From the IMG/VR virus record IMGVR_UViG_3300046028_008890, positions 1 to 57,322 of that record: a DNA stretch of 57,322 bases; one strand, 5' to 3'. Both the position numbers and the translations under genes were made by a program. Under the pieces are notes generated by a model. It was given only the letters and a program-made list of their open reading frames with translations, searched no databases and was not told the origin of the DNA. The DNA comes from a virus. Taxonomy: Duplodnaviria > Caudoviricetes. Below are positions 1,379-46,288 of this stretch, piece after piece (positions within the stretch are counted from its first letter, which is position 1; every line of letters starts with the position of its first letter).

Positions 1379-2008
1379 ATGAAAGTAATAGAAAAACAAT
1401 GGAATTACGGAACATACCTCGCATACGACGAGATTGATGAGGAGTTTTTAGCAACCGAGAAGGGTATCCGTGTATTACCAGCGCCTTTTTTTTATGAAAA
1501 GAAATTATATTTTGAGCTATGGAAGCGTTATGAGCCGGGTGATAAAGCAACATTCCCCAACGGCGGATATGAAGTTGTTGACGTAAGTGGAGGAATCCGT
1601 TCATACGACCTGGATCAGATCATCATTCATCCCCAGGTACTCCAGCACAAGAAAATGTTGGATAAGATGGCTCGTCGTGCGGAAAAGGAAGCACGCAAAC
1701 GCGAACGCAAACGTGATAAGGTATATAAAGCGGTTACTAAAGGTGGACGACGTGGTAGACCAGCAATTGATCCAGCACTTAAAGCCGCTAGAGCAGCACT
1801 TAAGGTAGAAGCTGGAGTGCGTAGTGGAGGAAAGCGCGGACGACCTAAGAGTACCGAACCTAAAGTAGTACCTACACCGAAAACAACCGGTGGAAGAAGA
1901 GGTCGTCCGGCGCTCTCAGCAGAAGTGATTGACCAGCGAGCAGCAGATAAAGCAGCTGTACAGAAACGTTCGAGAGGTAAACGCGGACGACCTAAATCAA
2001 ACCGTTGA
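1379..2008 (+). CDS. basic DNA-binding protein with four AT-hook-like (G-R/K-RGRP) motifs
   Basis: GRRGRP, GKRGRP, GRRGRP, GKRGRP in the C-terminal half. Confidence 0.75.
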   Translation: MKVIEKQWNYGTYLAYDEIDEEFLATEKGIRVLPAPFFYEKKLYFELWKRYEPGDKATFPNGGYEVVDVSGGIRSYDLDQIIIHPQVLQHKKMLDKMARRAEKEARKRERKRDKVYKAVTKGGRRGRPAIDPALKAARAALKVEAGVRSGGKRGRPKSTEPKVVPTPKTTGGRRGRPALSAEVIDQRAADKAAVQKRSRGKRGRPKSNR

Positions 2009-2050
2009 TTGTCATAATTATTTTACGTATATTTATCGAAATTAAAAATT

Positions 2051-2272
2051 ATGATTACAATTACAGAATTAGAAAACGTAGATGCTAATTATTTTGAATT
2101 ATCTGATAACAATAAAACATTGTATGTTTTTAAAGTAGATGATCATTATGAGTTTTCTATTAATGAAGGTTATGATGATGATCAGGTATTAATTGATGAA
2201 TGTATTGAATTTTGTAAACAGAATAATTTAAATTATGAAGTTACAGACTCTAATATATTAATTAGACTATAG
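2051..2272 (+). CDS. acidic hypothetical early protein
   Basis: ORF with own promoter. Confidence 0.8.
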   Translation: MITITELENVDANYFELSDNNKTLYVFKVDDHYEFSINEGYDDDQVLIDECIEFCKQNNLNYEVTDSNILIRL

Positions 2273-2332
2273 TTGAAATAATATACGAGATCGGTCAAAA
2301 CCGGTCTCGTATATTTATCGAAATTAAAAATT

Positions 2333-2536
2333 ATGAATTTAAAAACTATTAATCAAAAACAATGTTTGTCATTTCAAAATTGTGAAGATGATACTCATAT
2401 TTTTGATATTGAAGCTAAAAATGAAGATAATAAAGTTGAATTTACTATGAATTTAGATGTTGATGGTTTTAACATGACATTAAATCAAGTAGAATTAAAA
2501 ACACTAATTGATTATCTTCAACAACAACTAGATTAA
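2333..2536 (+). CDS. hypothetical early protein
   Basis: ORF with own promoter/hairpin. Confidence 0.8.
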   Translation: MNLKTINQKQCLSFQNCEDDTHIFDIEAKNEDNKVEFTMNLDVDGFNMTLNQVELKTLIDYLQQQLD

Positions 2537-2585
2537 TTCTGTCGTAGTTTTTTTACGTACATTTATCGAAATAAAATTAAAAATT

Positions 2586-2762
2586 ATGACTGTAGAAGAA
2601 ATTATTGCCGCATTAAAAGAACTAGATGTTGATGGAGAAACGACTCAATACATTCTAGAGCGAATTGGAATGGACGAGCAAATGGCCGTTCAGTTGACCA
2701 CTAAATACCCTAGTGTTGTACAGGAACACATCAACGAATTAAAATCTGAAGGATTAATTTAG
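2586..2762 (+). CDS. hypothetical early protein (58 aa, not in ORF track)
   Basis: MTVEEIIAALKELDVDG...; promoter at 2541. Confidence 0.75.
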   Translation: MTVEEIIAALKELDVDGETTQYILERIGMDEQMAVQLTTKYPSVVQEHINELKSEGLI

Positions 2763-2809
2763 CCGGGCGAAGCTTAGTTATTATATTCATCCAAATAAAA
2801 ATTAAACGT

Positions 2810-3001
2810 ATGGCTAACATGTCTTATTGCAGATTCGAAAACACACTTAGAGACCTTAGAGATTGTTTTGCTAACATGGATAGTGATGATTTGAGTCAAT
2901 CAGAGTTTTATGCACGTAAACAAATGATTGAGTTATGTTGGGATATTTACCAAGAATATTGTAATATAATCGATGATGAATTTGAAGACGAATCAGAATA
3001 G
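2810..3001 (+). CDS. hypothetical phage protein (MANMSYCRFENT type)
   Basis: ORF with own promoter; N-terminal motif recalled from phage hypotheticals. Confidence 0.8.
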   Translation: MANMSYCRFENTLRDLRDCFANMDSDDLSQSEFYARKQMIELCWDIYQEYCNIIDDEFEDESE

Positions 3002-3071
3002 GTTTTGTCCGGTCCGAATTTTTTTAGTACATTCATATCACAAATATAAATAAATAATAAAAACAAAGGTT

Positions 3072-3413
3072 ATGGCAAAGAAAATCACAACTCCAGTAGT
3101 AATCGAATTTAACGACGAAATTGAAACTGTAGAAACAGTAAAAGCACCTAGCACAGTAGGTAAAGAAGCAGGTAAAGGTTCAAAAGGTCGTCCAACAGTA
3201 GCAGGTTCGGCTCGTCAGATGCGTCTAGCAGCTAGAGAAGCTCGTGTAGCAGCAGGTGGTAAAGTACAAAGAGGTCGTCCATCAGTTCAAACAAGCGCTC
3301 GCCAAGCCAAACTAGCAGCACAAGCAGCTAGGGTTGCAACAGGTGGGGTTATTAAGCGTGGTCGTCCAGCAACTAAAAAGGTAGATGAAGTAGCAGCCGA
3401 AGTGGCTGCTTAA
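3072..3413 (+). CDS. basic Ala-rich protein with three (K/R)GRP AT-hook-like repeats
   Basis: KGRP..SARQ, RGRP..SARQ, RGRP internal repeats. Confidence 0.75.
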   Translation: MAKKITTPVVIEFNDEIETVETVKAPSTVGKEAGKGSKGRPTVAGSARQMRLAAREARVAAGGKVQRGRPSVQTSARQAKLAAQAARVATGGVIKRGRPATKKVDEVAAEVAA

Positions 3414-3490
3414 TCAATAATGCCTAAGGTCCGCCATCCCGATGGGTGGGTGGCGGAACTTTTTTCGTATATTCATCCAAATTAAAACAT

Positions 3491-3667
3491 ATGAATTTAC
3501 TTATTAATTACATGATTGATTTTTTACACGGCGTTAGAGTAGAGGGTGAACCAGCTAATTACCCGCAGACTAGTCCTTCAAATGTGAGGGGAGAAGATGG
3601 TTTTTTTGAGTGGAGCCGTGAATATAGAGTGGGGTGTCAAGCAAAAAGTGGAGCTTGTTTTTATTAG
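3491..3667 (+). CDS. hypothetical early protein
   Basis: Start moved to 3491, after the promoter motif. Confidence 0.65.
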   Translation: MNLLINYMIDFLHGVRVEGEPANYPQTSPSNVRGEDGFFEWSREYRVGCQAKSGACFY

Positions 3668-3710
3668 GCGAGATTTTTTACATACATTTATCGAAATAAA
3701 AATTAAATAT

Positions 3711-4109
3711 ATGGCTACAAGATCTTACATCGGAGTTAGAAACACAGATGCTTCAGTTGATTATATTTACTGCCACTTTGATGGCTACCCAGAGCACAAC
3801 GGACAGATCCTAACGGAGCATTATAATAATCCTAACCGAGTAAATGAATTAATGAAGCTGGGTGATTTGAGTGTGTTGGGAAAATTTATTGGTGAAAAAC
3901 AGGATTTCGATAAGCGAATTAAAGATAATTGTTTAGCATACGGTAGAGATAGGGGTGAATCGAATGTGGGAGTGAAAAATACCAGCTATGATAAATTGAT
4001 TGTCGATCAAAGTGTTGATTATGTTTATATTTTCGACGGTGATTATTGGGAGTGCCACAGCACATATACTCCAGAATTAATTAATTTATATGATAAAGCA
4101 GACGCTTAA
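3711..4109 (+). CDS. conserved phage hypothetical protein (MATRS..YCHxDGYP family)
   Basis: Start moved to 3711 after the promoter; YCHFDGYPEHNG motif. Confidence 0.8.
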   Translation: MATRSYIGVRNTDASVDYIYCHFDGYPEHNGQILTEHYNNPNRVNELMKLGDLSVLGKFIGEKQDFDKRIKDNCLAYGRDRGESNVGVKNTSYDKLIVDQSVDYVYIFDGDYWECHSTYTPELINLYDKADA

Positions 4110-4142
4110 AGATAGTTCATACTTTTAATTTTTAATGATTAC

Positions 4143-4170
4143 GCCCTGGGTTTCTACCCGGGGCTTTTTT
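4143..4170 (+). terminator. rho-independent terminator
   Basis: GCCCTGGG-tttcta-CCCGGGGC followed by T6. Confidence 0.85.
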
Positions 4171-4214
4171 ACATGGGCAAAATTAAACACGTATATTTAT
4201 CAAAATTAAAACAT

Positions 4215-4478
4215 ATGACAATAAAAGATTTGATTGAACAATTAAGTAAATTTAATCCAGAAACAGAAGTATTAGGTATGTGTACTGACCCTACAGATTA
4301 CACCTACAAAGTACCTATTAAGTCAATTATACTAGATGACCCTTATGATTCAAATGGTTATTCAGGTGTAGATGGTTCTGAAGTAGATTGGGTAGAGTGT
4401 TATAATGAAGATGAAGAAACAGGTGAAGAAACTTATATTGGTCCTAAGGTTGTATTATTAAATTTAGGTGATGTATAA
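4215..4478 (+). CDS. hypothetical early protein, paralog of 5698-5889
   Basis: MTIKDLIEQLSKFNPETEVLG; start after the promoter. Confidence 0.8.
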   Translation: MTIKDLIEQLSKFNPETEVLGMCTDPTDYTYKVPIKSIILDDPYDSNGYSGVDGSEVDWVECYNEDEETGEETYIGPKVVLLNLGDV

Positions 4479-4534
4479 AAACATCACTTTTTTTTGTCAC
4501 AATTATTTATATATATTTAATCAAATTAAAAATT

Positions 4535-4705
4535 ATGAGTGATAAATTAACATTAGAACAAAACGAACGTTTAAATGAATTAGAATCTGTGTTAAAAGTT
4601 TTTTTATATGATGTAGATTATTTGAGAGAATTTGGTGAAGATGAAGAAACAGATGTTAATTCTTTGTTTGATGATGTGTTTGATAGAATTAGAGAATTAA
4701 ATTGA
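4535..4705 (+). CDS. acidic hypothetical protein (56 aa, not in ORF track)
   Basis: MSDKLTLEQNERLNELES...; promoter at 4496. Confidence 0.75.
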   Translation: MSDKLTLEQNERLNELESVLKVFLYDVDYLREFGEDEETDVNSLFDDVFDRIRELN

Positions 4706-4751
4706 TTTTTTTGTCACAACTATTTACGTACATTTATCAAAATTAAAACAT

Positions 4752-4940
4752 ATGAAATATTTAGTAATTGAATTTTTTGGAAATGATAATTATTTTACTA
4801 CAAATGGTTGTACAATTGATGAATTAGTAGAGGAAATGTATGGCGGTAGAGAAGAATTTAATTTAGAAGAAGCTAAGAAATCATTTTTTGAAAATTATGA
4901 TGTATTTGAGATTAGAGGTGAGTTGGTAAAGATAAATTAG
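4752..4940 (+). CDS. acidic hypothetical early protein
   Basis: ORF with own promoter. Confidence 0.8.
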   Translation: MKYLVIEFFGNDNYFTTNGCTIDELVEEMYGGREEFNLEEAKKSFFENYDVFEIRGELVKIN

Positions 4941-4957
4941 TTTTTTTATATCAGGTG

Positions 4958-4986
4958 AATGTGGGTGGTCAGAAATGATCACCCAT
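4958..4986 (+). repeat. left copy of 29-bp hairpin direct repeat; terminator-like
   Basis: aatgTGGGTGGTCA-gaaa-TGATCACCCAt followed by a T run; 27/29 identical to 6954-6982. Confidence 0.9.
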
Positions 4987-5072
4987 TTTTTTAATATTAT
5001 CTTAACATAATTAATTTAAAATATATTTGTTTTGTTATAATTAATTTATTATATTTATATAAATTAATAATT

Positions 5073-5315
5073 ATGATTAAAATTTATTGTATTGATGATG
5101 ATGGTGATTTAGTTAGAGATTATAAGGTTAGTAGTGATTTGTTGATGGAGAGATTTGTATTAAGTGAGGGTGATGTAAGTGAGATAATGAGTGAGATAGG
5201 AATTTATAGTGTAGAGGATGATGTGGAGATGTTTAGAGTGGATAGTGTGGAGGATATTGATTTGGATATGTGGTTAAATAGGGTAGGTATTGATTTTGAG
5301 TTGAGGAGGAGGTGA
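5073..5315 (+). CDS. acidic hypothetical protein, C-less gene
   Basis: Intact ORF with promoter; no Ala/Pro/Thr/His/Gln. Confidence 0.8.
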   Translation: MIKIYCIDDDGDLVRDYKVSSDLLMERFVLSEGDVSEIMSEIGIYSVEDDVEMFRVDSVEDIDLDMWLNRVGIDFELRRR

Positions 5316-5382
5316 TGGATAAAAAAATAAATTAGTTTAATTGTGATTAATGATGTATATTTGTATAAATAAATTATTAATT

Positions 5383-5637
5383 ATGAGTATAGAATTAAAA
5401 TTGAATGAATTAGATGAAATGTTTAGTAAGTGTGGAAATGGAGTGTTTATTATGTGTATGAGTAATAGAGGGGATAAAAAGGATAGATTTAGGATTTGTA
5501 GAGAGAGTTGGAAATTAGGTAGTAGAGTGAATTGGGTGAAGTGTAAAAAAATATTGAGTTTAGAAGGTATTGAATTTGTGGAGGGTGAAAGTGGATGGGG
5601 AATGAGAATGAGTAGATGTATTGATTTTAATTATTAA
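5383..5637 (+). CDS. hypothetical protein, C-less gene
   Basis: Start moved to 5383 after the promoter; no A/P/T/H/Q. Confidence 0.8.
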   Translation: MSIELKLNELDEMFSKCGNGVFIMCMSNRGDKKDRFRICRESWKLGSRVNWVKCKKILSLEGIEFVEGESGWGMRMSRCIDFNY

Positions 5638-5697
5638 AGTAAATTAGTTTAATTAAAATTAATTATGTATATTTAGTTATAATTAAAAAATTAAAGT

Positions 5698-5889
5698 ATG
5701 AAAGTAAAAGAATTAATTAGTTTATTAAGTAAATTTAATGGTGAATTAGATGTATTAGGTGAATTTGATAGTGATGGTGATGAATTTATGGTTAAAATAG
5801 ATGTTAATAAAGTATATAAAGGTAATAATATTGATGATAGTAATTGGGATGATGATGGTAAAGAATATTGTATAATATTATTAAAATAA
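5698..5889 (+). CDS. hypothetical protein, C-less paralog of 4215-4478
   Basis: MKVKELISLLSKFNGELDVLG versus MTIKDLIEQLSKFNPETEVLG. Confidence 0.8.
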   Translation: MKVKELISLLSKFNGELDVLGEFDSDGDEFMVKIDVNKVYKGNNIDDSNWDDDGKEYCIILLK

Positions 5890-5944
5890 ATTTGTATTGT
5901 TAGAATTAATTGTGTATATTTAATTATAATTAAAAATTAAAAAT

Positions 5945-6244
5945 ATGAAATTAAATTTAAAAGATTTAAAAGAATGGATGTGGATTGAAGTATGTGAAGG
6001 TGATGATAAGATAAAGATTAGTAATAAGTATAAAAAAGTATGTGATGGAATTGGAGATGAAGAAGTAAGTGGTGGAAATTATATTTGGTATTTTTATTTG
6101 ATATTAGATAGATTAGTTGAAAAAGAAATGATAGAGTTTGAAGGTGGTGATTTTGATTGGATATATGAATTTTTAAAGGAATATAATGAGGAGAATAATT
6201 TTAATAAGTATATGGATGAATATAATTTATTAGTTATTAAATAA
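5945..6244 (+). CDS. acidic hypothetical protein, C-less gene
   Basis: Intact 99-aa ORF with promoter. Confidence 0.8.
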   Translation: MKLNLKDLKEWMWIEVCEGDDKIKISNKYKKVCDGIGDEEVSGGNYIWYFYLILDRLVEKEMIEFEGGDFDWIYEFLKEYNEENNFNKYMDEYNLLVIK

Positions 6245-6297
6245 ATTAGTTTAGTTAGAATTAATATTGTATATTTAATTAATTAAAAAATATAATT

Positions 6298-6582
6298 ATG
6301 ATTATTGAAAATTATTTAGAAAGTATGATTTATGATTTTAATTGTGGAAATGATAATGAGTATGATGAAGGAGAATTAGTAGAGTTTAGATATGAAGAAA
6401 TTGAAAAAGGAGATTTAGATAATTATGATGAAGAAGATGTAAATATGTTTTATGAAATGAGAGATTATATTAATGAAGTGAAAGAAATAAAATATAAAAA
6501 TGATGATGATGGAATAGAATATATTTTTAGTGTAGAAGAAAATGATATAGTTTGTAGATTTAAAGAAGTAATTAGGTATTAA
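6298..6582 (+). CDS. highly acidic hypothetical protein, C-less gene
   Basis: Intact 94-aa D/E-rich ORF with promoter. Confidence 0.8.
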   Translation: MIIENYLESMIYDFNCGNDNEYDEGELVEFRYEEIEKGDLDNYDEEDVNMFYEMRDYINEVKEIKYKNDDDGIEYIFSVEENDIVCRFKEVIRY

Positions 6583-6640
6583 ATAAATTAGTTTAGTTAG
6601 AATTAATAGTGTATATTTATTTAAATTAAAAATTATTATT

Positions 6641-6739
6641 ATGAATTTAATTAATTATGTTATTTTATTTACTATTTTATTTAATGTTATTTTTATTAGT
6701 ATTAGTTATAAAGTAGAATTAGATAGAAGAAAAAATTAA
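6641..6739 (+). CDS. 32-aa membrane peptide containing the island's only C (Thr11, ACT)
   Basis: MNLINYVILFTILFNVIFISISYKVELDRRKN; promoter at 6596. Confidence 0.6.
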   Translation: MNLINYVILFTILFNVIFISISYKVELDRRKN

Positions 6740-6792
6740 ATTTGTTTTGTTAGAATTAATATTGTATATTTAATTAATTAAAAAATATAATT

Positions 6793-6951
6793 ATGAATTT
6801 AAGTTTAAAGGAATTAAATGATTTGTATTATTGTGTAGGTAAGATGAGATGGTATAGTGAAGGAAGTAAAATGATAAGTAATGAAGAGTGTGAATTATTA
6901 TTAGATAGGTTAAGGGATGAAATAAATAAAGTAGTAAAAGAAGAAGAATAA
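6793..6951 (+). CDS. 52-aa hypothetical protein, C-less gene (not in ORF track)
   Basis: MNLSLKELNDLYYCVGKMRW...; promoter at 6749. Confidence 0.7.
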   Translation: MNLSLKELNDLYYCVGKMRWYSEGSKMISNEECELLLDRLRDEINKVVKEEE

Positions 6952-6953
6952 TA

Positions 6954-6982
6954 AATGTGGGTGGTCAGGAATGATCACCTAT
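6954..6982 (+). repeat. right copy of 29-bp hairpin direct repeat; overlaps the promoter of the next gene
   Basis: aatgtgggtggtcaggaatgatcacctat; GTCA-N12-TATCTTCA. Confidence 0.9.
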
Positions 6983-7011
6983 CTTCATCTAAACAATATA
7001 AATCAATTAAT

Positions 7012-7110
7012 ATGAGTATGTATTCAATTAACGTAGCTGCCTTAGTAACAATCTTAGTGAACACAGTAATACTAGTAGGTGTCTGGAGACATCAGCGCAG
7101 GCAAAAATAA
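7012..7110 (+). CDS. small membrane peptide
   Basis: 32-aa hydrophobic ORF after the promoter. Confidence 0.5.
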   Translation: MSMYSINVAALVTILVNTVILVGVWRHQRRQK

Positions 7111-7148
7111 GGTCATATATTCAGGACACAATTAAAAATTAAAACAAT

Positions 7149-7328
7149 ATGGAAAATTTAATTATTAGAACCAAGTATTTAAATGTATCATTAATTCCAG
7201 GTGTATTATTCGGAGCAATATATACCGACCAGGAAATAGGTATAGTAATAGGGCCACTAGCACTAACGATTAAACTGTATGCCTTCAACCGTAAACGTAA
7301 AGCGACACCCAATACAAATGAATTATAG
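7149..7328 (+). CDS. 59-aa hypothetical protein (not in ORF track)
   Basis: MENLIIRTKYLNVSLIPG...; promoter at 7100. Confidence 0.65.
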   Translation: MENLIIRTKYLNVSLIPGVLFGAIYTDQEIGIVIGPLALTIKLYAFNRKRKATPNTNEL

Positions 7329-7381
7329 GTGGACGGGGCAAAGCCCCGTTCATATATTCATCACATAATAAAATTAAACAT

Positions 7382-7564
7382 ATGAAACAATTTATCATTT
7401 CACTTCTAGTATCATTAATCGTATTGTATCTAGTAGTATCATTCATCAGCCTCACTCCCAATATAGCTGAATGGGGTTCGGGTGGACGTGGTGCTTATCT
7501 ATTCTTCGGAGCGTTATTTGGAGGTATAGCTTACGTTATCTATTACGAAACAAATAATAAATAG
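7382..7564 (+). CDS. small two-TM membrane protein
   Basis: Two hydrophobic helices; own promoter. Confidence 0.75.
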   Translation: MKQFIISLLVSLIVLYLVVSFISLTPNIAEWGSGGRGAYLFFGALFGGIAYVIYYETNNK

Positions 7565-7608
7565 ATGATGGGGCGAAGGCTCCACCTTACATTCACACTA
7601 TAAAATTA

Positions 7609-7869
7609 ATGAATATGAATTACATGATTAATGATCTAGCAAGTAAAGAAGTAGCAATCGCATTCGCTCAATGGACTATCCTTAACGGTATGTGGAACTC
7701 AGACCTCACATTCGATGAACAGTATGAGTGCTGGATGAAGGTACTGGATGACCAGGCGCACGATGCTAGATTGGCACATGACAGTGTGGATGATGAGGAT
7801 TATGAGGATTTCGGGGCATATATTATGGCGAGGAGGAAAATGGAAAGTGTGTTGATGTCGGGGCGCTAG
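7609..7869 (+). CDS. hypothetical protein
   Basis: ORF with own promoter. Confidence 0.7.
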   Translation: MNMNYMINDLASKEVAIAFAQWTILNGMWNSDLTFDEQYECWMKVLDDQAHDARLAHDSVDDEDYEDFGAYIMARRKMESVLMSGR

Positions 7870-8066
7870 CGATTGTTAGCGGCCCGATAGCGGTCTGATT
7901 GCGATCTGCTCCCACGCTAGCCGCGGTCCATCGACGGGGCGGGGGCGGCGTAAAAAAGGATAGGCACATTCTCAACACGCATACACCTCTACACCCCCGA
8001 CAATATATACGCATATACTAACTAATAAATCACATACTACACTATATTTATTAAAAACACACACGT

Positions 8067-32847: not shown

Positions 32848-33819
32848 ATGATCAAATTACTTAACCTAGCTAAGCAAATACTAAAAGAAGGTGGTAACGT
32901 ATTCGGTACTACAGACTCAATTGAAAAAGATAATATTGAACCTACAATTGAAAAATTTGTAGAGCAATTATCCCAAGTATTCCCAGCTAAAGCATCAACA
33001 TTTACTGCATTTGAAAAACTAGGTTCAGCAGGTAAAAAAGCAGTATCCGGTGATATTGATTTATCATACGATATTAAAAATATATTTCCTGGTGGTAAAC
33101 CTGATTTTAAAGGTTGGGGTGTAGATGAAAATAAATACAACGAATTATTAGCTCAATTTACTAAGAAAGCTAGAACAGCATCTCCTGAAAAACTTCAATT
33201 ACGCGCTATGATTGTGTTAATTGGGGATAAAATTAATGATACTTTACCTGATGTTGAAGTAGATCTTAAAGCATCAGGTGCCGGATCATTATTCTGCGCC
33301 ATACCTCAGTATGGCCCTGATGGTGAACAAGTAGGTAAAGCCGTTCAGACTGACATTAATGTAGGTAATCCTGAATGGTTACGTTTTAGTTATTATTCCC
33401 AATCATATGAGGGAAATGTTAAAGGTTTGCATCGCACACAATTAATGTTGGCTTTATTCTCTAATAAAGGTAAATCATTTGGTCATACTACAGGTGTTGT
33501 TGATAAAGAAAGTGGTAAACAAGAAGCATCTAATCCTAAAGAAGCTATCGATTTATTAAATCAACTATATGGCTTTAATTTAACTCAAGATATTCTAGAT
33601 GATTATTTTAAGTTAGAAGATTTTATGAGGAAAAATATATCTAAAGAAGAATATAATTCTATTATAGATAGATACCTTAAAATACTTGATTCAACTCGAG
33701 CAGATATACCAAATAATTTACAAAAATATTGGATTGAAAATCAAGACAGATTAGGATTAAAAGGTAAATTTTTACCGGATAATTCAAATTTAATTCCTTA
33801 CCAAAAAGAAAAAGCCTAA
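32848..33819 (+). CDS. pol-beta-fold nucleotidyltransferase-like protein with MIKLL leader
   Basis: LGSAGKK..SGDIDL and a downstream QTD aspartate. Confidence 0.65.
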   Translation: MIKLLNLAKQILKEGGNVFGTTDSIEKDNIEPTIEKFVEQLSQVFPAKASTFTAFEKLGSAGKKAVSGDIDLSYDIKNIFPGGKPDFKGWGVDENKYNELLAQFTKKARTASPEKLQLRAMIVLIGDKINDTLPDVEVDLKASGAGSLFCAIPQYGPDGEQVGKAVQTDINVGNPEWLRFSYYSQSYEGNVKGLHRTQLMLALFSNKGKSFGHTTGVVDKESGKQEASNPKEAIDLLNQLYGFNLTQDILDDYFKLEDFMRKNISKEEYNSIIDRYLKILDSTRADIPNNLQKYWIENQDRLGLKGKFLPDNSNLIPYQKEKA

Positions 33820-36800
33820 TGTCTGGAAGTGCCGGTGGAAATAGAATTACTAGAGCTTCTGTTGCTAAAACAGTAGATAATTATATCAACAGGATATTAA
33901 AGAAATTTCCTGCTTTTAAAAGTGCTAAAGTATCAGGCTCATATAATACAAGCGCTAAAGAAGACTTTGGTGATATTGATTTAATTGTTAATTTAGAAGC
34001 AACTGATAAGAAAAATATTAAAGTAGAATTAGCTAAATTCCTATCTGCTCTACCAGATAATATTATTGTTCCTTTTAAAAGTGAAAAATATAAAGGTAAA
34101 AAATATCTAAACACAGGAGAAATAATCACTATACTATATCCTATAGAAGGACAACCAGGTGAATATGTTCAAATAGATAATATTGTTTCTATTAGTGATG
34201 ATGAAGCTGAATTTAAAAAAGAATTTTTAGATTATCCTGCTGAAATACAAGGATTATTATTAGGATTATCTAAAGTAATATGTTTGGAAGAAGATCCTAA
34301 AGCAATATTTGCTCGTATGGGTATTAAAAATATACCTGAACTTGAAGCGAATCAAGAATACGAATTCAATTTATCAAGCGCCGGATTAACACTACGTATC
34401 GTAACATTAGATAATTTTAAAGAAGTTGACCGCACTGAAGTATGGAAAACTAGTAATTGGTCCAATATCAAGCGGTTATTTACCAACTACAAAATAGATG
34501 GTAGCTTTGAAGATCTATTAAATGATATATCATCTAAGACAAAAAACATACGCTCAAAAAATCGCATTAAAGGTATTTTTAATTCGATGGTGTCTATTAA
34601 AAGTGGTGAAGTAGGTACACCTAAAGGCGATAATAAACAAAAATCATTAGATAAAGTGAATAACACATTAACTGAAACTAATTTAGGTAGGTATCTCGCC
34701 TCATTATTATTAGAGCAAGACCAACCAACAATAGCCCTATACCCAGGTAAATTCAAACCTCCACATAAAGGTCATTTTGAAGTAGTAAAGAAATTACTAC
34801 AGAATGCTGATCAAGTAGTTGTTTTAATTTCTCCTAAAACACATGAAGGTATTACTGCAGATGAAAGTGCTGCTATATGGGAATTATATAAGCAAAAATT
34901 AGATGGTAACGTTGAAGTAAGAATATCTGGTATTACTCCTGTTAAAGATGTATATGATTTTGTAGAAAATAATCCTGAGTTGACAGTATATGCTGCTTAT
35001 GGTAAAGGTGATGAGGGTAGATATGAGAGATTAAAGAAATACCCTAACGCTAAAATATTCAATGCTGGGTCAGTAACTGAAGATGGTGAAGATATAAGTG
35101 CTACTAATCTTAGAAAAGCAATACGTGATGAAAATGAAGGTGATATAAGAAAATATTTACCTGATGGAATTGAAGTAAATGACTTTTTAAGAGCCATAGG
35201 TAAAGAAACAAAAGAAGAACCACAACCTACACCTGCTCCTACCGCTCCTGTAGCCCCAGTAACTGAGAGGAAATATCAGAATCAAGATGATATGTTTGCT
35301 GATTATGTTTTATCTAGAGAGGCAGATGTTGAAGATACCGCTCAAGCATTCAATATACCAATCCCAGACGTAAGATATGCTTTTACAGTAGGTAATATGG
35401 TAGTAATGTCTGACGATATGTGGGATAAGTTAGAAAATAAAAATCATGAAGACGAAAATAGTGAAATTAGTGGTCCTCCTATGATTTTAAATTATGATCA
35501 AGATAGATATTATTTAACATATGGTAGTCGTATATTAGCTGATTATAAAAAATTAAATAAAATACCTAAAGTATTGTTGGGTGTTTTAGATTTAAAAGGT
35601 CCTAAACCTTGGCCTTTAAAAGAATACTCTCAAGGCACCATTAATGATCTAGTAACTAAATTTAAACAAGAAAAACCTAATTTAGGAGCAGATATTATCA
35701 AAGCATATATTAATCGTTTTGATCAAATTAAAAGCAAACCAGAAGTAGCTAATAAAGATATCACAACATATAGTTGGAAAGAATTAGAAACTATAGTTGA
35801 TGCTAATCAACCTAAGCGTATTAAGGCAGGTAAAATAAATGATGGTGAACCTAGCAAAGATGCTAATCTAGTCTATAACCAAAATGGATTAAGAATATAT
35901 GTTGGTAAAACTAAAAATGCCTGTATTAAATACGGTAATGGATACTCATTCTGCATCTCAGCTCGTGGAGAAGATAATTTATATCATGATTATAGAATAG
36001 AAAATAATGGAACACCATACTTTGTGTTTGATGATACAAAATCATCTGAACAAGATGAAAATGGAAAATTTATAGATCCAACTCATTTGTTAGTAGTATT
36101 TATACATGAATATCCTGAATTAGCCGATGACTATAATGATGATGAAGAAACCAATTACATCAGATATAATGAACCTAAAGTATATTACACTGTAACTACT
36201 GCAGACAATCAAGGAGAAGAAGAATATGGGGCTTTTGAAGATGACAGTAAAGTATTTGACCCAGTAGTGGGTGATTATCCTGAACTTAAAGGGCTAAAAG
36301 ATGTATTTAAGCCTATAAAAATAGATCCAAAAGAAAAAGCAGAATATAATCTTGAGAGAAAATATAATGATAAATTTGATAAAATTTATAATAGATATGG
36401 CAGTCAGTGGAGAGGTGATCATATTTATAATAATTATAATTTTTCCGGCATTATACAGGCTAATAAACTTATTGATGAATTTATAAATAATAAAATAGAA
36501 TCATATAATTTTATTGGAATTCTTAAAACTGAAGCGGTTAATGACTATCGTACTGAATCAATAAGACAATCTAGAATTGTAAAAACAGGAAGTCAAACAA
36601 GTTTAGAACATCAAAAGAAAAAATTTATAGAACAAATAATTATACCTCAGTATAATGGATCTGATAAGAACCATAATATTGAAGATGATTGGATTATAAA
36701 GTATCAAAAGGAAGATTTTTCAAATCCTATGTATAAAGATTATTTTAAAGATATTAAACAATTAGTTGACGAATATAGAAATGAATTATCTAAACTAAGA

Positions 36801-37196
36801 TTAATGAAAGAAGGTTTAGAACGTAAAACCAAATTAACTGAAAGCGAAACTGGTACTATAGGTGAATTTGTAAAGTATGCAATCAAAAACTTGGAAATAC
36901 AAAAACCTCCACGTAACTTAACCTTCTCATACGATAATGCGGCTGCTAAGGAGAAAAGGAGTTTTGGTTATTTTGATCCGAATGCTAATAAGATATGGGT
37001 GTACTGCGGGAATAGAAATATGGCTGATATATTAAGAACATTAGCACATGAATTAGTACATCGTAAGCAAGACGAAGACGGACGTATTAATTACGAAAGC
37101 GGAAAAACAGGAAGTGAAATAGAAAACGAAGCAAATGCTCAAGCAGGAGTCTTATTAAGAGATTTCGGCAAACAACACGAAGAAATATATCAATAA
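33819..37196 (+). CDS. multidomain protein: nucleotidyltransferase, HxGH cytidylyltransferase-like, domain shared with 39574, HExxH zincin
   Basis: GSY..DFGDIDL; PGKFKPPHKGH..ISATNLR; LAHELVH. Confidence 0.75.
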   Translation: MSGSAGGNRITRASVAKTVDNYINRILKKFPAFKSAKVSGSYNTSAKEDFGDIDLIVNLEATDKKNIKVELAKFLSALPDNIIVPFKSEKYKGKKYLNTGEIITILYPIEGQPGEYVQIDNIVSISDDEAEFKKEFLDYPAEIQGLLLGLSKVICLEEDPKAIFARMGIKNIPELEANQEYEFNLSSAGLTLRIVTLDNFKEVDRTEVWKTSNWSNIKRLFTNYKIDGSFEDLLNDISSKTKNIRSKNRIKGIFNSMVSIKSGEVGTPKGDNKQKSLDKVNNTLTETNLGRYLASLLLEQDQPTIALYPGKFKPPHKGHFEVVKKLLQNADQVVVLISPKTHEGITADESAAIWELYKQKLDGNVEVRISGITPVKDVYDFVENNPELTVYAAYGKGDEGRYERLKKYPNAKIFNAGSVTEDGEDISATNLRKAIRDENEGDIRKYLPDGIEVNDFLRAIGKETKEEPQPTPAPTAPVAPVTERKYQNQDDMFADYVLSREADVEDTAQAFNIPIPDVRYAFTVGNMVVMSDDMWDKLENKNHEDENSEISGPPMILNYDQDRYYLTYGSRILADYKKLNKIPKVLLGVLDLKGPKPWPLKEYSQGTINDLVTKFKQEKPNLGADIIKAYINRFDQIKSKPEVANKDITTYSWKELETIVDANQPKRIKAGKINDGEPSKDANLVYNQNGLRIYVGKTKNACIKYGNGYSFCISARGEDNLYHDYRIENNGTPYFVFDDTKSSEQDENGKFIDPTHLLVVFIHEYPELADDYNDDEETNYIRYNEPKVYYTVTTADNQGEEEYGAFEDDSKVFDPVVGDYPELKGLKDVFKPIKIDPKEKAEYNLERKYNDKFDKIYNRYGSQWRGDHIYNNYNFSGIIQANKLIDEFINNKIESYNFIGILKTEAVNDYRTESIRQSRIVKTGSQTSLEHQKKKFIEQIIIPQYNGSDKNHNIEDDWIIKYQKEDFSNPMYKDYFKDIKQLVDEYRNELSKLRLMKEGLERKTKLTESETGTIGEFVKYAIKNLEIQKPPRNLTFSYDNAAAKEKRSFGYFDPNANKIWVYCGNRNMADILRTLAHELVHRKQDEDGRINYESGKTGSEIENEANAQAGVLLRDFGKQHEEIYQ

Positions 37197-46242: not shown

Positions 46243-46288
46243 AGGCAAAATAAATTTATTATATTTACATATTCAATTTAATTTAATT

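Follow-up and report, generated by a model that had tools for sequence, protein, structure and literature searches.

Cytosine-free versions of a phage's own cassette promoter within a cytosine-free gene island

Introduction

This study concerns seven promoters that lie within a cytosine-free (C-free) gene island of a tailed phage (Duplodnaviria; Caudoviricetes), known from IMG/VR record IMGVR_UViG_3300046028_008890. The whole 57,322-nucleotide (nt) stretch of DNA that was analysed, positions 1 to 57,322 of that record, is referred to below as the window. Compared with the promoters of the neighbouring gene cassettes, the island promoters are spelled without C, mostly by the use of T in its place. 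The stretch under the ban on C starts somewhere between position -13 and the core of the promoter that comes first in the island, and it stops at a hairpin that closes the island. These limits suggest that the ban is a property of the cassette or transcription unit and not of the DNA itself. The explanation that we favour, and consider probable with some reservation, is that the cost of a C is paid by the transcribed unit, either as C in the RNA or as G in the template strand.

Literature searches found no published description of C-free phage genes or promoters. The island promoters provide a ruler for natural genes that lack one of the four letters, and the limits of the ban separate several classes of cause. 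Effects at the level of tRNA are ruled out by them, avoidance of sites in duplex DNA and a scar of deamination are argued against, and the cost is tied to the transcription of the unit.

Promoters of the cytosine-free island

The + strand of the window is free of C at 5007-6671 and 6673-6965, the sole C of the island lying at 6672, and the longest C-free run elsewhere in the window is 76 nt. The island (5007..6965, + strand, 1959 nt) holds seven genes and seven promoters, one promoter per gene, and zero terminators. It belongs to an array of small + strand genes that spans 2000-7900 of the window, in which a separate promoter-like motif lies about 20 nt 5' of the ATG of every gene and many genes have a terminator hairpin.

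The pattern GTTA-N12-TATATTTA has five matches in the 57,322 bases when both strands are searched, all of them inside the island and exactly at the five sites listed in a preliminary description of this DNA (5034, 5899, 6254, 6596 and 6749). The mean number expected by chance is 0.20, and none of 100 dinucleotide-preserving shuffles reached five. The pattern of the neighbouring cassettes, GKCR-N12-TAYATTYA, has 11 matches in the window, at 2294, 2766, 3452, 3667, 4176, 4496, 4713, 7100, 7337, 7572 and 46244. Ten of these are in the array, which flanks the island on both sides, one is at 46244, and none is inside the island (shuffle expectation, 0.22). Four of them (2294, 4496, 4713 and 7337) had been reported before as a GTCA or GGCA motif confined to the outside of the island, and this is what the search found.

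All of the island promoters are on the + strand. Those of the GTTA-N12-TATATTTA type occupy 5034..5057 (the first island promoter, C-free from 5007 on), 5899..5922, 6254..6277, 6596..6619 and 6749..6772. Two further island promoters depart from the GTTA pattern: ATTG-N12-TATATTTG at 5340..5363 (core at 5356), which serves the gene starting at 5383, and ATTA-N12-TATATTTA at 5652..5675 (core at 5668), which serves the gene starting at 5698. The outside cassettes, on the same strand, are represented by GTCA-N12-TATATTTA at 2294..2317 and 4496..4519, GTCA-N12-TACATTTA at 4713..4736, GGCA-N12-TATATTCA at 7337..7360, and GGCA-N12-TATATTTA at 4176..4199, in front of a gene (4215) that has a paralogue in the island; the others are those at 2766, 3452, 3667, 7100 and 7572.

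The letters that change can be read from an alignment, anchored on the core, of 13 outside and seven island promoters chosen by eye (the motifs at 1179, 1237, 3762 and 8043 were omitted). Outside the island, C is found at -14 in 11/13 promoters, at -2 in 10/13 and at +9 in 9/13. In the island, T is found at the same positions in 7/7, 6/7 and 5/7, C is present at -14 in 0/7, and T occupies the two Y positions of the core in 7/7. G is found at -16 in 5/7 island promoters, while -1 is G in 7/13 outside and 6/7 island promoters, so that the earlier statement that the boxes are preceded by CG outside and by TG inside holds roughly, as a tendency at -2 and -1. Each of the seven cores, one of them with a final G, is followed within about 18-27 nt by an ATG-led open reading frame (ORF). 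The proposal that the island promoters are C-to-T versions of the phage's own promoter is supported as a majority rule, given the shared core, the 16-nt offset and the A/T leader. From their sequence, the seven island promoters would be working members of the cassette promoter family of the lineage.

A wider survey covered 15 loci (the window and 14 related contigs) and collected every TAYATTYR followed by an ATG-led ORF of at least 25 codons. The near-duplicates L009, L014, L015 and L023 (of L011, L013, L016 and L006, respectively) were left out, the 230 matches became 228 after removal of identical 50-mers, and the ORF-internal match L007:10548 was dropped. Among the 205 candidates outside islands, which include late-type promoters and chance matches, positions -16..-13 read GGCA in 49, GTCA in 41, GGCG in 18 and GTTA in two, and -14 is C in 140 and T in 23. 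The 16 internal island promoters have GTTA (7), ATTA (4), ATTG (2), GTAA (2) or GTCG (1); their -14 is T in 13, A in two and C in one, their -2 is T in 15 and A in one, and +9 is A in six. The first promoters of the islands have GTCA (3), GCCA (1) or GTTA (2) in the six cases found by script, and ATTA in L018, where the promoter was read by eye. The GTTA box is therefore far from being equally frequent in C-normal regions, since it is carried by 2/205 candidates outside islands vs 9/22 promoters inside them.

Downstream of the early array, larger genes of the window are preceded by another promoter-like class, in which TATAT or TACxT comes after TATATTTA (9575, 10907, 17240, 23190, 46260 and 50514). 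Relatives have this form too (e.g., L007:14817 and L021:5909), which is probably a late or middle promoter type.

Native origin of the island

The sequences indicate that the island is native to the phage lineage and not foreign DNA, in agreement with what had been proposed. In addition to the core and spacing, promoter and leader stretches of the island share 74-92% DNA identity with those outside. One island gene (5698-5889) has a C-containing paralogue in the same array (4215-4478; 38% identity over 39 residues, E 1e-7), and both match phrog_5861 and phrog_22847. Moreover, islands with shared gene families are present in the arrays of relatives.

The relatives, retrieved with the early protein encoded at 3711-4109 as a query, have genomes of 169-183 kb that bear terminal repeats. 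Stretches with no C or hardly any were found in the same array in L006 (1475 nt, 0 C), L022 (925 nt, 1 C), L018 (828 nt, 0 C), L007 (790 nt, 2 C), L021 (307 nt, 0 C) and L017 (137 nt, 0 C), and none was found in the retrieved parts of L008-L016, L019 and L020; for genome G003, the scan covered 20 kb (L013/L014). The islands therefore range from 137 to 1959 nt; their gene sets differ, the same hairpin brackets them in four contigs, and at least 13 protein families have been found in C-free form. Two other contigs have islands of about 2 kb that are C-poor rather than C-free (L078:3900-6050 and L080:3900-5950; 3-4% C vs 9-16% in the flanks). They encode homologues of the same families and, from their composition, seem to represent the trait when relaxed or at an early stage. 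A site-free region of the first-entering type (T5 pre-early, T7 early) would be expected at the leading end of the genome. In G001, a complete relative of 173 kb, there is a single island of 790 nt at 73.5 kb, although the start of the contig may be arbitrary.

The window itself is a fragment, with an estimated completeness of 35%, that encodes a T4-like baseplate, terminase and portal; no tRNA genes were found in it. A blastn search of 4400-7600 against isolated phages gave zero matches. The island DNA is real, because contigs from three other lake metagenome runs (X11, X12 and X14) match it with 0 differences over long parts; no RNA run is listed as carrying it. As a separate observation, residues 299-342 of a 1125-residue protein (33819-37196) match PHROGs annotated as cytidyltransferase and nicotinamide-nucleotide adenylyltransferase, with no evident connection to C metabolism.

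Genes and composition of the island

The seven island genes are all small and on the + strand. The first (5073..5315, 80 residues) belongs to family A and has an orthologue in L006, and the second (5383..5637, 84 residues) to the Cys-rich family B, with orthologues in L006 and L022. These are followed by the paralogue mentioned above (5698..5889, 63 residues, family C), a gene for 99 residues (5945..6244), and a gene for an acidic protein of 94 residues (6298..6582) that is identical in L006. A hydrophobic protein of 32 residues (6641..6739) contains the only C of the island, in the ACT codon at 6672, and the last gene (6793..6951, 52 residues, family G) has homologues in other contigs with 0 to 9 or more C. 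Searches of the island proteins against Pfam and PHROGs matched only families of unknown function, and a search of family B against a protein atlas gave no usable match. For family H, a model based on a nine-sequence alignment gave a confident fold of five helices (predicted local distance difference test score, 87.2). Nothing significant was found for this fold in the PDB (best Foldseek E 4.4; best VIA Z 4.8, with 0 chains at Z of at least 5), and the BFVD has one uncharacterised phage protein that resembles it (E 9.9e-4).

The absence of C extends to every class of site. The 504 codons of the island include 240 NNT and no NNC codons, vs 387 NNT and 101 NNC codons in 13 flanking early genes, and intergenic C amounts to 0/346 nt in the island vs 81/553 nt (14.6%) outside. 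G already exceeds C in the flanking genes; in the island the skew is +1. Pro, His, Gln and Ala are missing from the island proteins, and Thr occurs once in the 504 codons. Such a gap in amino acid usage would be expected if the cause lay in translation, for example an avoidance of certain tRNAs or codons after tRNA cleavage by a defence system. However, NNC codons are lost and NNT codons are kept even though the same tRNAs read both, and the leaders and intergenic DNA are equally C-free. The preliminary description had disfavoured a tRNA-level cause, and on the codon counts we regard it as hardly credible.

Limits of the cytosine ban

Terminator-like sites are present at 3430, 4143, 4466 and 4961, each directly 5' of a promoter. 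A terminator scan and folding in 60-nt windows found neither a terminator-like site nor a stable hairpin inside the island. The minimum free energy of 60-nt windows averages -3.5 kcal/mol in the island (minimum -8.9) and -7.4 kcal/mol outside, and reaches about -18 kcal/mol at both borders. RNA that lacks C is unable to form G-C stems. The left border is a terminator hairpin, GTGGGTGGTCAGAAATGATCACCCA and a T run, at 4961..4996 (+ strand; 11-pair stem with a T-rich tail; folding energy -18.0 kcal/mol in the 60-nt window at 4940 and -17.4 kcal/mol in that at 4960), which would insulate the island from upstream transcription. The right border is the closing hairpin at 6957..6985 (+ strand), which, as judged by eye, has its Cs in the stem and in which a degenerate core (TATCTTCA) follows a GTCA placed at the promoter offset. 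The two hairpins are the left and right copies of a repeat, and the pair was also found in three other contigs (four contigs in all).

The bracketing hairpin has a GTCA exactly at the offset of the promoter box (window 4961-4986 and 6957-6985; L007:9734 and 11258; L022:1206 and 2449), and hence the same element supplies a terminator stem and the upstream half of the next promoter. By eye, none of its Cs falls in the loop, which reads GAAA or GGAA; all belong to the stem. In L022, L007 and L017 the hairpin together with TAYATTYA itself forms a promoter.

Because there is no terminator within the island, six of its seven promoters probably sit in read-through transcripts. This applies also to their upstream elements, a possibility that the preliminary description had itself named as a problem for its argument. 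DNA that is not transcribed can therefore be judged only at the first promoter, which is preceded by the terminator at 4961. This promoter was compared in seven lineages (in the order window, L006, L007, L017, L018, L021 and L022). At -43..-17, the C counts are 0, 1, 7, 6, 2, 4 and 2, with a mean of 3.8 for the 13 outside promoters. At -16..-1 they are 0, 0, 2, 1, 0, 1 and 4 (outside mean 3.2, minimum 2), and from the core to +12 they are 0, 0, 0, 0, 0, 0 and 1 (outside mean 2.2, minimum 1). The C at -14 is retained by the first promoter in 4/7 lineages (L007, L017, L021 and L022), and in the single-cassette islands of L017 (137 nt) and L021 (307 nt) the absence of C is confined to the stretch from promoter position -13 up to the closing hairpin. 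Of the two Cs in the L007 island, one lies exactly at -14 of an internal promoter (GTCG), which implies that a C at this position is worth something to the promoter. The island promoters thus show which Cs a promoter needs: the -14 C is kept outside the unit in these four lineages, and once inside it.

In L018, the first ORF of the island is separated from its first promoter by an unusually long A/T leader or spacer, a 152-nt run free of G (6295-6446) that is also C-free from 6354.

The preliminary description had reasoned that C is excluded even from untranscribed promoter DNA and had preferred a DNA-level cause, namely deamination or the avoidance of restriction or modification. This argument is not borne out by an island that lacks terminators and by first promoters that keep their -14 C in 4/7 lineages with a normal density of C upstream. 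Further evidence against it is that the cultured relative discussed below retains Cs at -2 and in the core, and that coding C positions are mostly replaced by A or G, not T. If the cause acted on duplex DNA, the island would avoid restriction, modification or other protein-binding sites regardless of transcription. It is true that a strand without C cannot contain a palindromic site with G or C, and that in the window, L006 and L018 no C is found in the 31-48 nt that precede the core of the first promoter. However, site avoidance requires neither strand asymmetry nor a ban on every C, islands of 137 and 307 nt that match single cassettes make no sense as site-free zones, the closing hairpin retains its Cs, and the island of G001 is one patch of 790 nt in 173 kb. 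A duplex-DNA cause is therefore very unlikely. One DNA-level reading survives on other grounds, namely avoidance of (modified) G in the template strand, and is considered below.

Selection against cytosine

It is selection, and not deamination, that keeps C out of the island, and its exclusion has been maintained over the long term. Members of family H in nine contigs (53-72% identity) contain 0, 0, 0, 0, 1, 3, 4, 14 and 15 C, and counts in the family G homologues start at 0 and, by way of 1 and 4, reach 9 or more. Among the 12 in-island variants listed for X16, a diverged strain, none is to C; 25 further differences exist beyond those listed. Two differences to C, at 5840-5841, stem from contigs with 13-16 differences per ~100 nt.

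A single-strand cytosine deaminase, or spontaneous deamination, acting on the displaced non-template strand of highly transcribed cassettes could also deplete C, and the promoters would then be its scar, with C changed to T from the open complex on. The loss of C is indeed strand-specific and starts near the core, where the non-template strand opens, and the replacements in internal island promoters are mostly T: in 13/15 non-C promoters at -14 and 15/16 at -2, i.e. 28/31 non-C letters at the two positions. In coding DNA, however, the paralogue pair has 17 aligned positions at which the outside gene has C, and the island gene has T at only six of them and A or G at 11. T is thus common at -14 and -2 and not at coding Cs, so that its presence there reflects what the promoter tolerates, and even in the promoters A is used instead of T at some positions (-14 in 2/16, +9 in 6/16). 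Neighbouring cassettes with the same promoter type retain 8-15% C, all seven reading frames are intact though C-to-T changes would generate stop codons, and the spread of 0 to 15 C among lineages within the same families fits a tunable selection better than a fixed mutation pressure. We therefore regard a deamination scar as quite improbable.

Another explanation without any C-specific pressure on promoter letters is a founder effect, in which the island promoters would be copies of one ancestral C-free cassette that multiplied through duplication and recombination. Near-identical intergenic repeats are found in the island, for example around 6254 and 6749, and shuffling has been described by Comeau et al. 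(2014, PMC4122927) for the promoter-early stem-loop (PeSL) modules, to which the cassettes are similar. In some contigs from other samples, cassettes are skipped by joints at the repeated promoters; the sides of these joints are short (21-44 nt), which makes them weak support, and they were not counted as recombination. Common descent would have to account for several box variants (GTTA, ATTA, ATTG and GTAA), for C-free promoters across lineages whose cassette proteins are only 50-65% identical, and for rewriting of T for C in a distant phage with a different promoter family (see below). The contrast in intergenic C, 14.6% outside vs none inside, also stands against it, and we consider a founder effect unlikely.

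A similar case in Flavobacterium phage immuto

The nearest cultured relative is Flavobacterium phage immuto (52.6% identity in TerL). Early gene 128 of immuto (68330-68686 of MW353175.1; L059:18330-18686) has five Cs in 357 nt (1.4%), and its neighbours have 5.5-33% C. No similar gene was found elsewhere in positions 1-160,000, i.e. all but the last 410 bases of the genome, and gene 128 is not clearly related to the island families (best E 0.3).

The early promoters of immuto (L059:17600-26300, corresponding to 67.6-76.3 kb) have GTTGC about 20 nt before TATATTTA and a near-invariant leader, GGTATCAATAATTAAAAC. The box of the window lineage is 12 nt upstream, and there are thus two architectures around the same core. 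The promoter of gene 128 is of the usual immuto type, except that T replaces C in the flank of the TTG box, which reads TTGTT for TTGCC, and in the leader, which reads TATTAAT for TATCAAT; it retains Cs at -2 and within the core. Promoter family and phage branch therefore differ from those of the window, and the rewriting and its boundary are the same.

Immuto encodes FolE, QueD, QueE, QueC, QueF and DpdA. Its deoxyguanosine peak is reported to be gone and replaced by fdPreQ1, and DpdA3 enzymes are described as modifying genomes completely (10.1101/2023.04.13.536721). Together with its host, immuto makes the question of C-free genes testable at the bench. Such work may reveal a new constraint of hypermodified DNA on transcription, or a new C-directed host activity in Bacteroidota.

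The cost of a cytosine

If the cost of C is paid by the transcribed unit, the observations could be connected as follows. The cassette family consists of the G-K-C-R box, 12 nt, TAYATTYA, an A/T leader and an ATG about 18-27 nt past the core, often fused to the preceding terminator hairpin. The island promoters would have been rewritten without C because the island is one terminator-less transcribed unit, in which the transcripts from each promoter would traverse the next promoters. Every transcribed sense-strand C, equivalent to a template-strand G, would be selected against. The substitutes are T, rarely A, at -14, at -2, in this phage at +9, and at both Y positions of the core, T being retained at these positions since a pyrimidine there would still serve the promoter. 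No scar of deamination would be involved.

The C-poor islands of L078 and L080 hold 153 Cs, and the bases before and after them are distributed much as in the flanks. The cost per C thus looks context-free. This places it at the nucleotide itself, and speaks against motif-specific RNases and, under the rules known from E. coli and B. subtilis, against Rho alone. A dinucleotide (YC) rule was rejected, since YC fractions in the C-poor islands (0.26, 0.35, 0.38, 0.50 and 0.55) scatter around those of normal DNA (0.38-0.44); the commonest base after C in the C-poor islands is A, not T.

Eight Cs are left in the coding parts of the islands, and each stands in the middle of an ACT or GCT codon, i.e. 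purine-C-T: one in the window (6672), one in L007 (10628), one in L022 (1928) and five in immuto (L059:18397, 18429, 18520, 18679 and 18682). Elsewhere, NCT makes up 35-49% of Thr and Ala codons. The C-poor islands lack this context, so that in the eight it may reflect only recent T-to-C changes in ATT and GTT codons.

Two versions of a cost to the transcribed unit can be distinguished. In the first, the cost is that of a G in the template. A sense strand without C means a template strand without (modified) G, and if G is probably fully replaced by a 7-deazaguanine in this lineage, a G-free template would be free of the modification and of lesions. A gene for a homologue of the DNA guanine transglycosylase DpdA (33-36% identity, E about 1e-40) lies beside that for QueC in all four complete relatives (G001-G004; e.g., G001:C1:6101-7625; loci L025-L030), and from this gene content G is probably replaced by a 7-deazaguanine in the lineage. 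Neither gene is present in the window or in G005, both of which are fragments. The Pfam TGT profile (PF01702) found no DpdA in the relatives where the immuto DpdA query did, a miss that marks the sensitivity limit of the profile. In the second version, the cost is that of a C in the nascent or finished RNA, through CTP supply, a chain terminator such as ddhCTP (the product of prokaryotic viperins), an RNase or Rho. Taken jointly, these RNA-level causes are a serious possibility that falls short of being probable, while the template version is somewhat more doubtful, as a tentative suggestion; evidence in these genomes exists for the template version only.

Several points weigh against a cost paid by the transcribed unit. 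The C-free first promoters of the window, L006 and L018 have already been mentioned. The ban also extends 10-25 nt into DNA that is probably untranscribed, since the stretch from the core to +12, likely upstream of the transcription start site (TSS), holds one C in total in the seven first promoters; such a reach into promoter DNA fits an effect on the open complex or on single strands as well as an effect on RNA. Both the TSS positions, which follow the geometry reported for Bacteroidota promoters, and the read-through are predicted from sequence. Promoters within islands are related via duplication, so that their counts are not independent events. As to the template version, Campylobacter phage CP220, cited as completely modified (10.1101/2023.04.13.536721), is nowhere poor in C or G (any 300 nt contain at least 14 C and 16 G), G002 encodes DpdA yet has no island, and the remaining genes of these phages are read from G-containing templates. 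Among the RNA-level causes, Rho meets the difficulty that flanking genes already have more G than C and that the C-poor islands lack consistent YC avoidance, and as a sole cause it is down-weighted. Complete replacement of G as a sufficient cause by itself was rejected on account of CP220 and G002.

It is tempting to speculate, although this is no better than a tentative idea, that the island is a bootstrapping or counter-defence module, i.e. that early genes and their internal promoters are spelled so that RNA polymerase never meets a (modified) G, in a lineage in which every G is a bulky 7-deazaguanine. If true, the module would be expressed whatever the state of the DNA, whether unmodified after replication, modified in the virion, or abasic after a host glycosylase has excised the modified base. 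The T-for-C promoters would then be the price for having promoters within a module that is protected by its own spelling.

Comparison with known systems

The housekeeping promoter of Bacteroidota reportedly consists of TTTG at -33 and TAnnTTTG at -7. The core TAYATTYA fits TAnnTTT, which is found in all of the promoters here, one island promoter has the full TATATTTG, and the A/T-rich leaders lack a Shine-Dalgarno sequence, as in Bacteroidota; the promoters of immuto also have TTG at ~20 nt upstream. In the window lineage, by contrast, the GKCR box is 12 nt before the core, ~4-5 nt closer than in the consensus as it is said to be, and the last base of the core is A, not G: relative to that reported consensus, the final G is present in 1/7 island promoters and 4/205 outside candidates. 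TTTG or TTAG is present at -20..-17 in island promoters, the spacing of the -33 box being likewise taken from what is reported.

The sense-strand composition of the island, with G over C, resembles the purine bias by which transcripts avoid Rho, in that it is shaped by the fate of the nascent transcript. For that bias, a C content below G over ~150 nt is described as sufficient (Dierksheide et al. 2026, PMC13323073). The island differs in that C falls to zero, the flanking genes already satisfy this rule, and C-poor relatives show no YC-specific loss.

A transcription machinery can distinguish a modified from an unmodified template, as in phage T4, where Alc acts in combination with hydroxymethylcytosine DNA. 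The glycosylases Brig1-3 are described as excising modified bases from phage DNA and leaving abasic sites (10.64898/2026.02.25.707755). Alc and Brig1-3 are thus precedents for a cost tied to a (modified) base in the transcribed DNA of a fully substituted phage. We know of no Alc- or Brig-like factor for 7-deazaguanine, and of no described set of genes that dodges such a factor by omitting the template base.

C-less and G-less cassettes are used for in vitro transcription, where a C-less cassette is copied without CTP and RNA polymerase stops at the first G of the template. The island is similar in that its first template G is in the closing hairpin, and differs in being made of natural protein-coding genes with internal promoters.

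The closest likeness is to the PeSL cassettes that T4-type phages are said to have. Like these, the island lies in a variable region of a T4-like myovirus and is made up of small genes whose function is unknown, a composite of terminator hairpin and early-type promoter flanks each gene, and gene content varies between close relatives while the junction motif stays. In the window lineage the hairpin GGTGGTCAGAAATGATCACC supplies the GTCA box at the correct offset for the following TAYATTYA, in line with the modules of terminator stem-loop and early promoter described for PeSL cassettes (Comeau et al. 2014, PMC4122927). The differences are that the core is of the Bacteroidota-like TAnnTTT type with a box at 12-nt spacing, and that the host phylum is another one. 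Furthermore, some cassettes are written without C, promoters included, which is not described for PeSLs, and the stem-loop half is missing inside the island. The likeness is thus one of architecture only. No published counterpart of the island was found, and its C-free promoters may be regarded, by analogy, as a variation on the composite promoter-terminator cassettes of T4-type phages.

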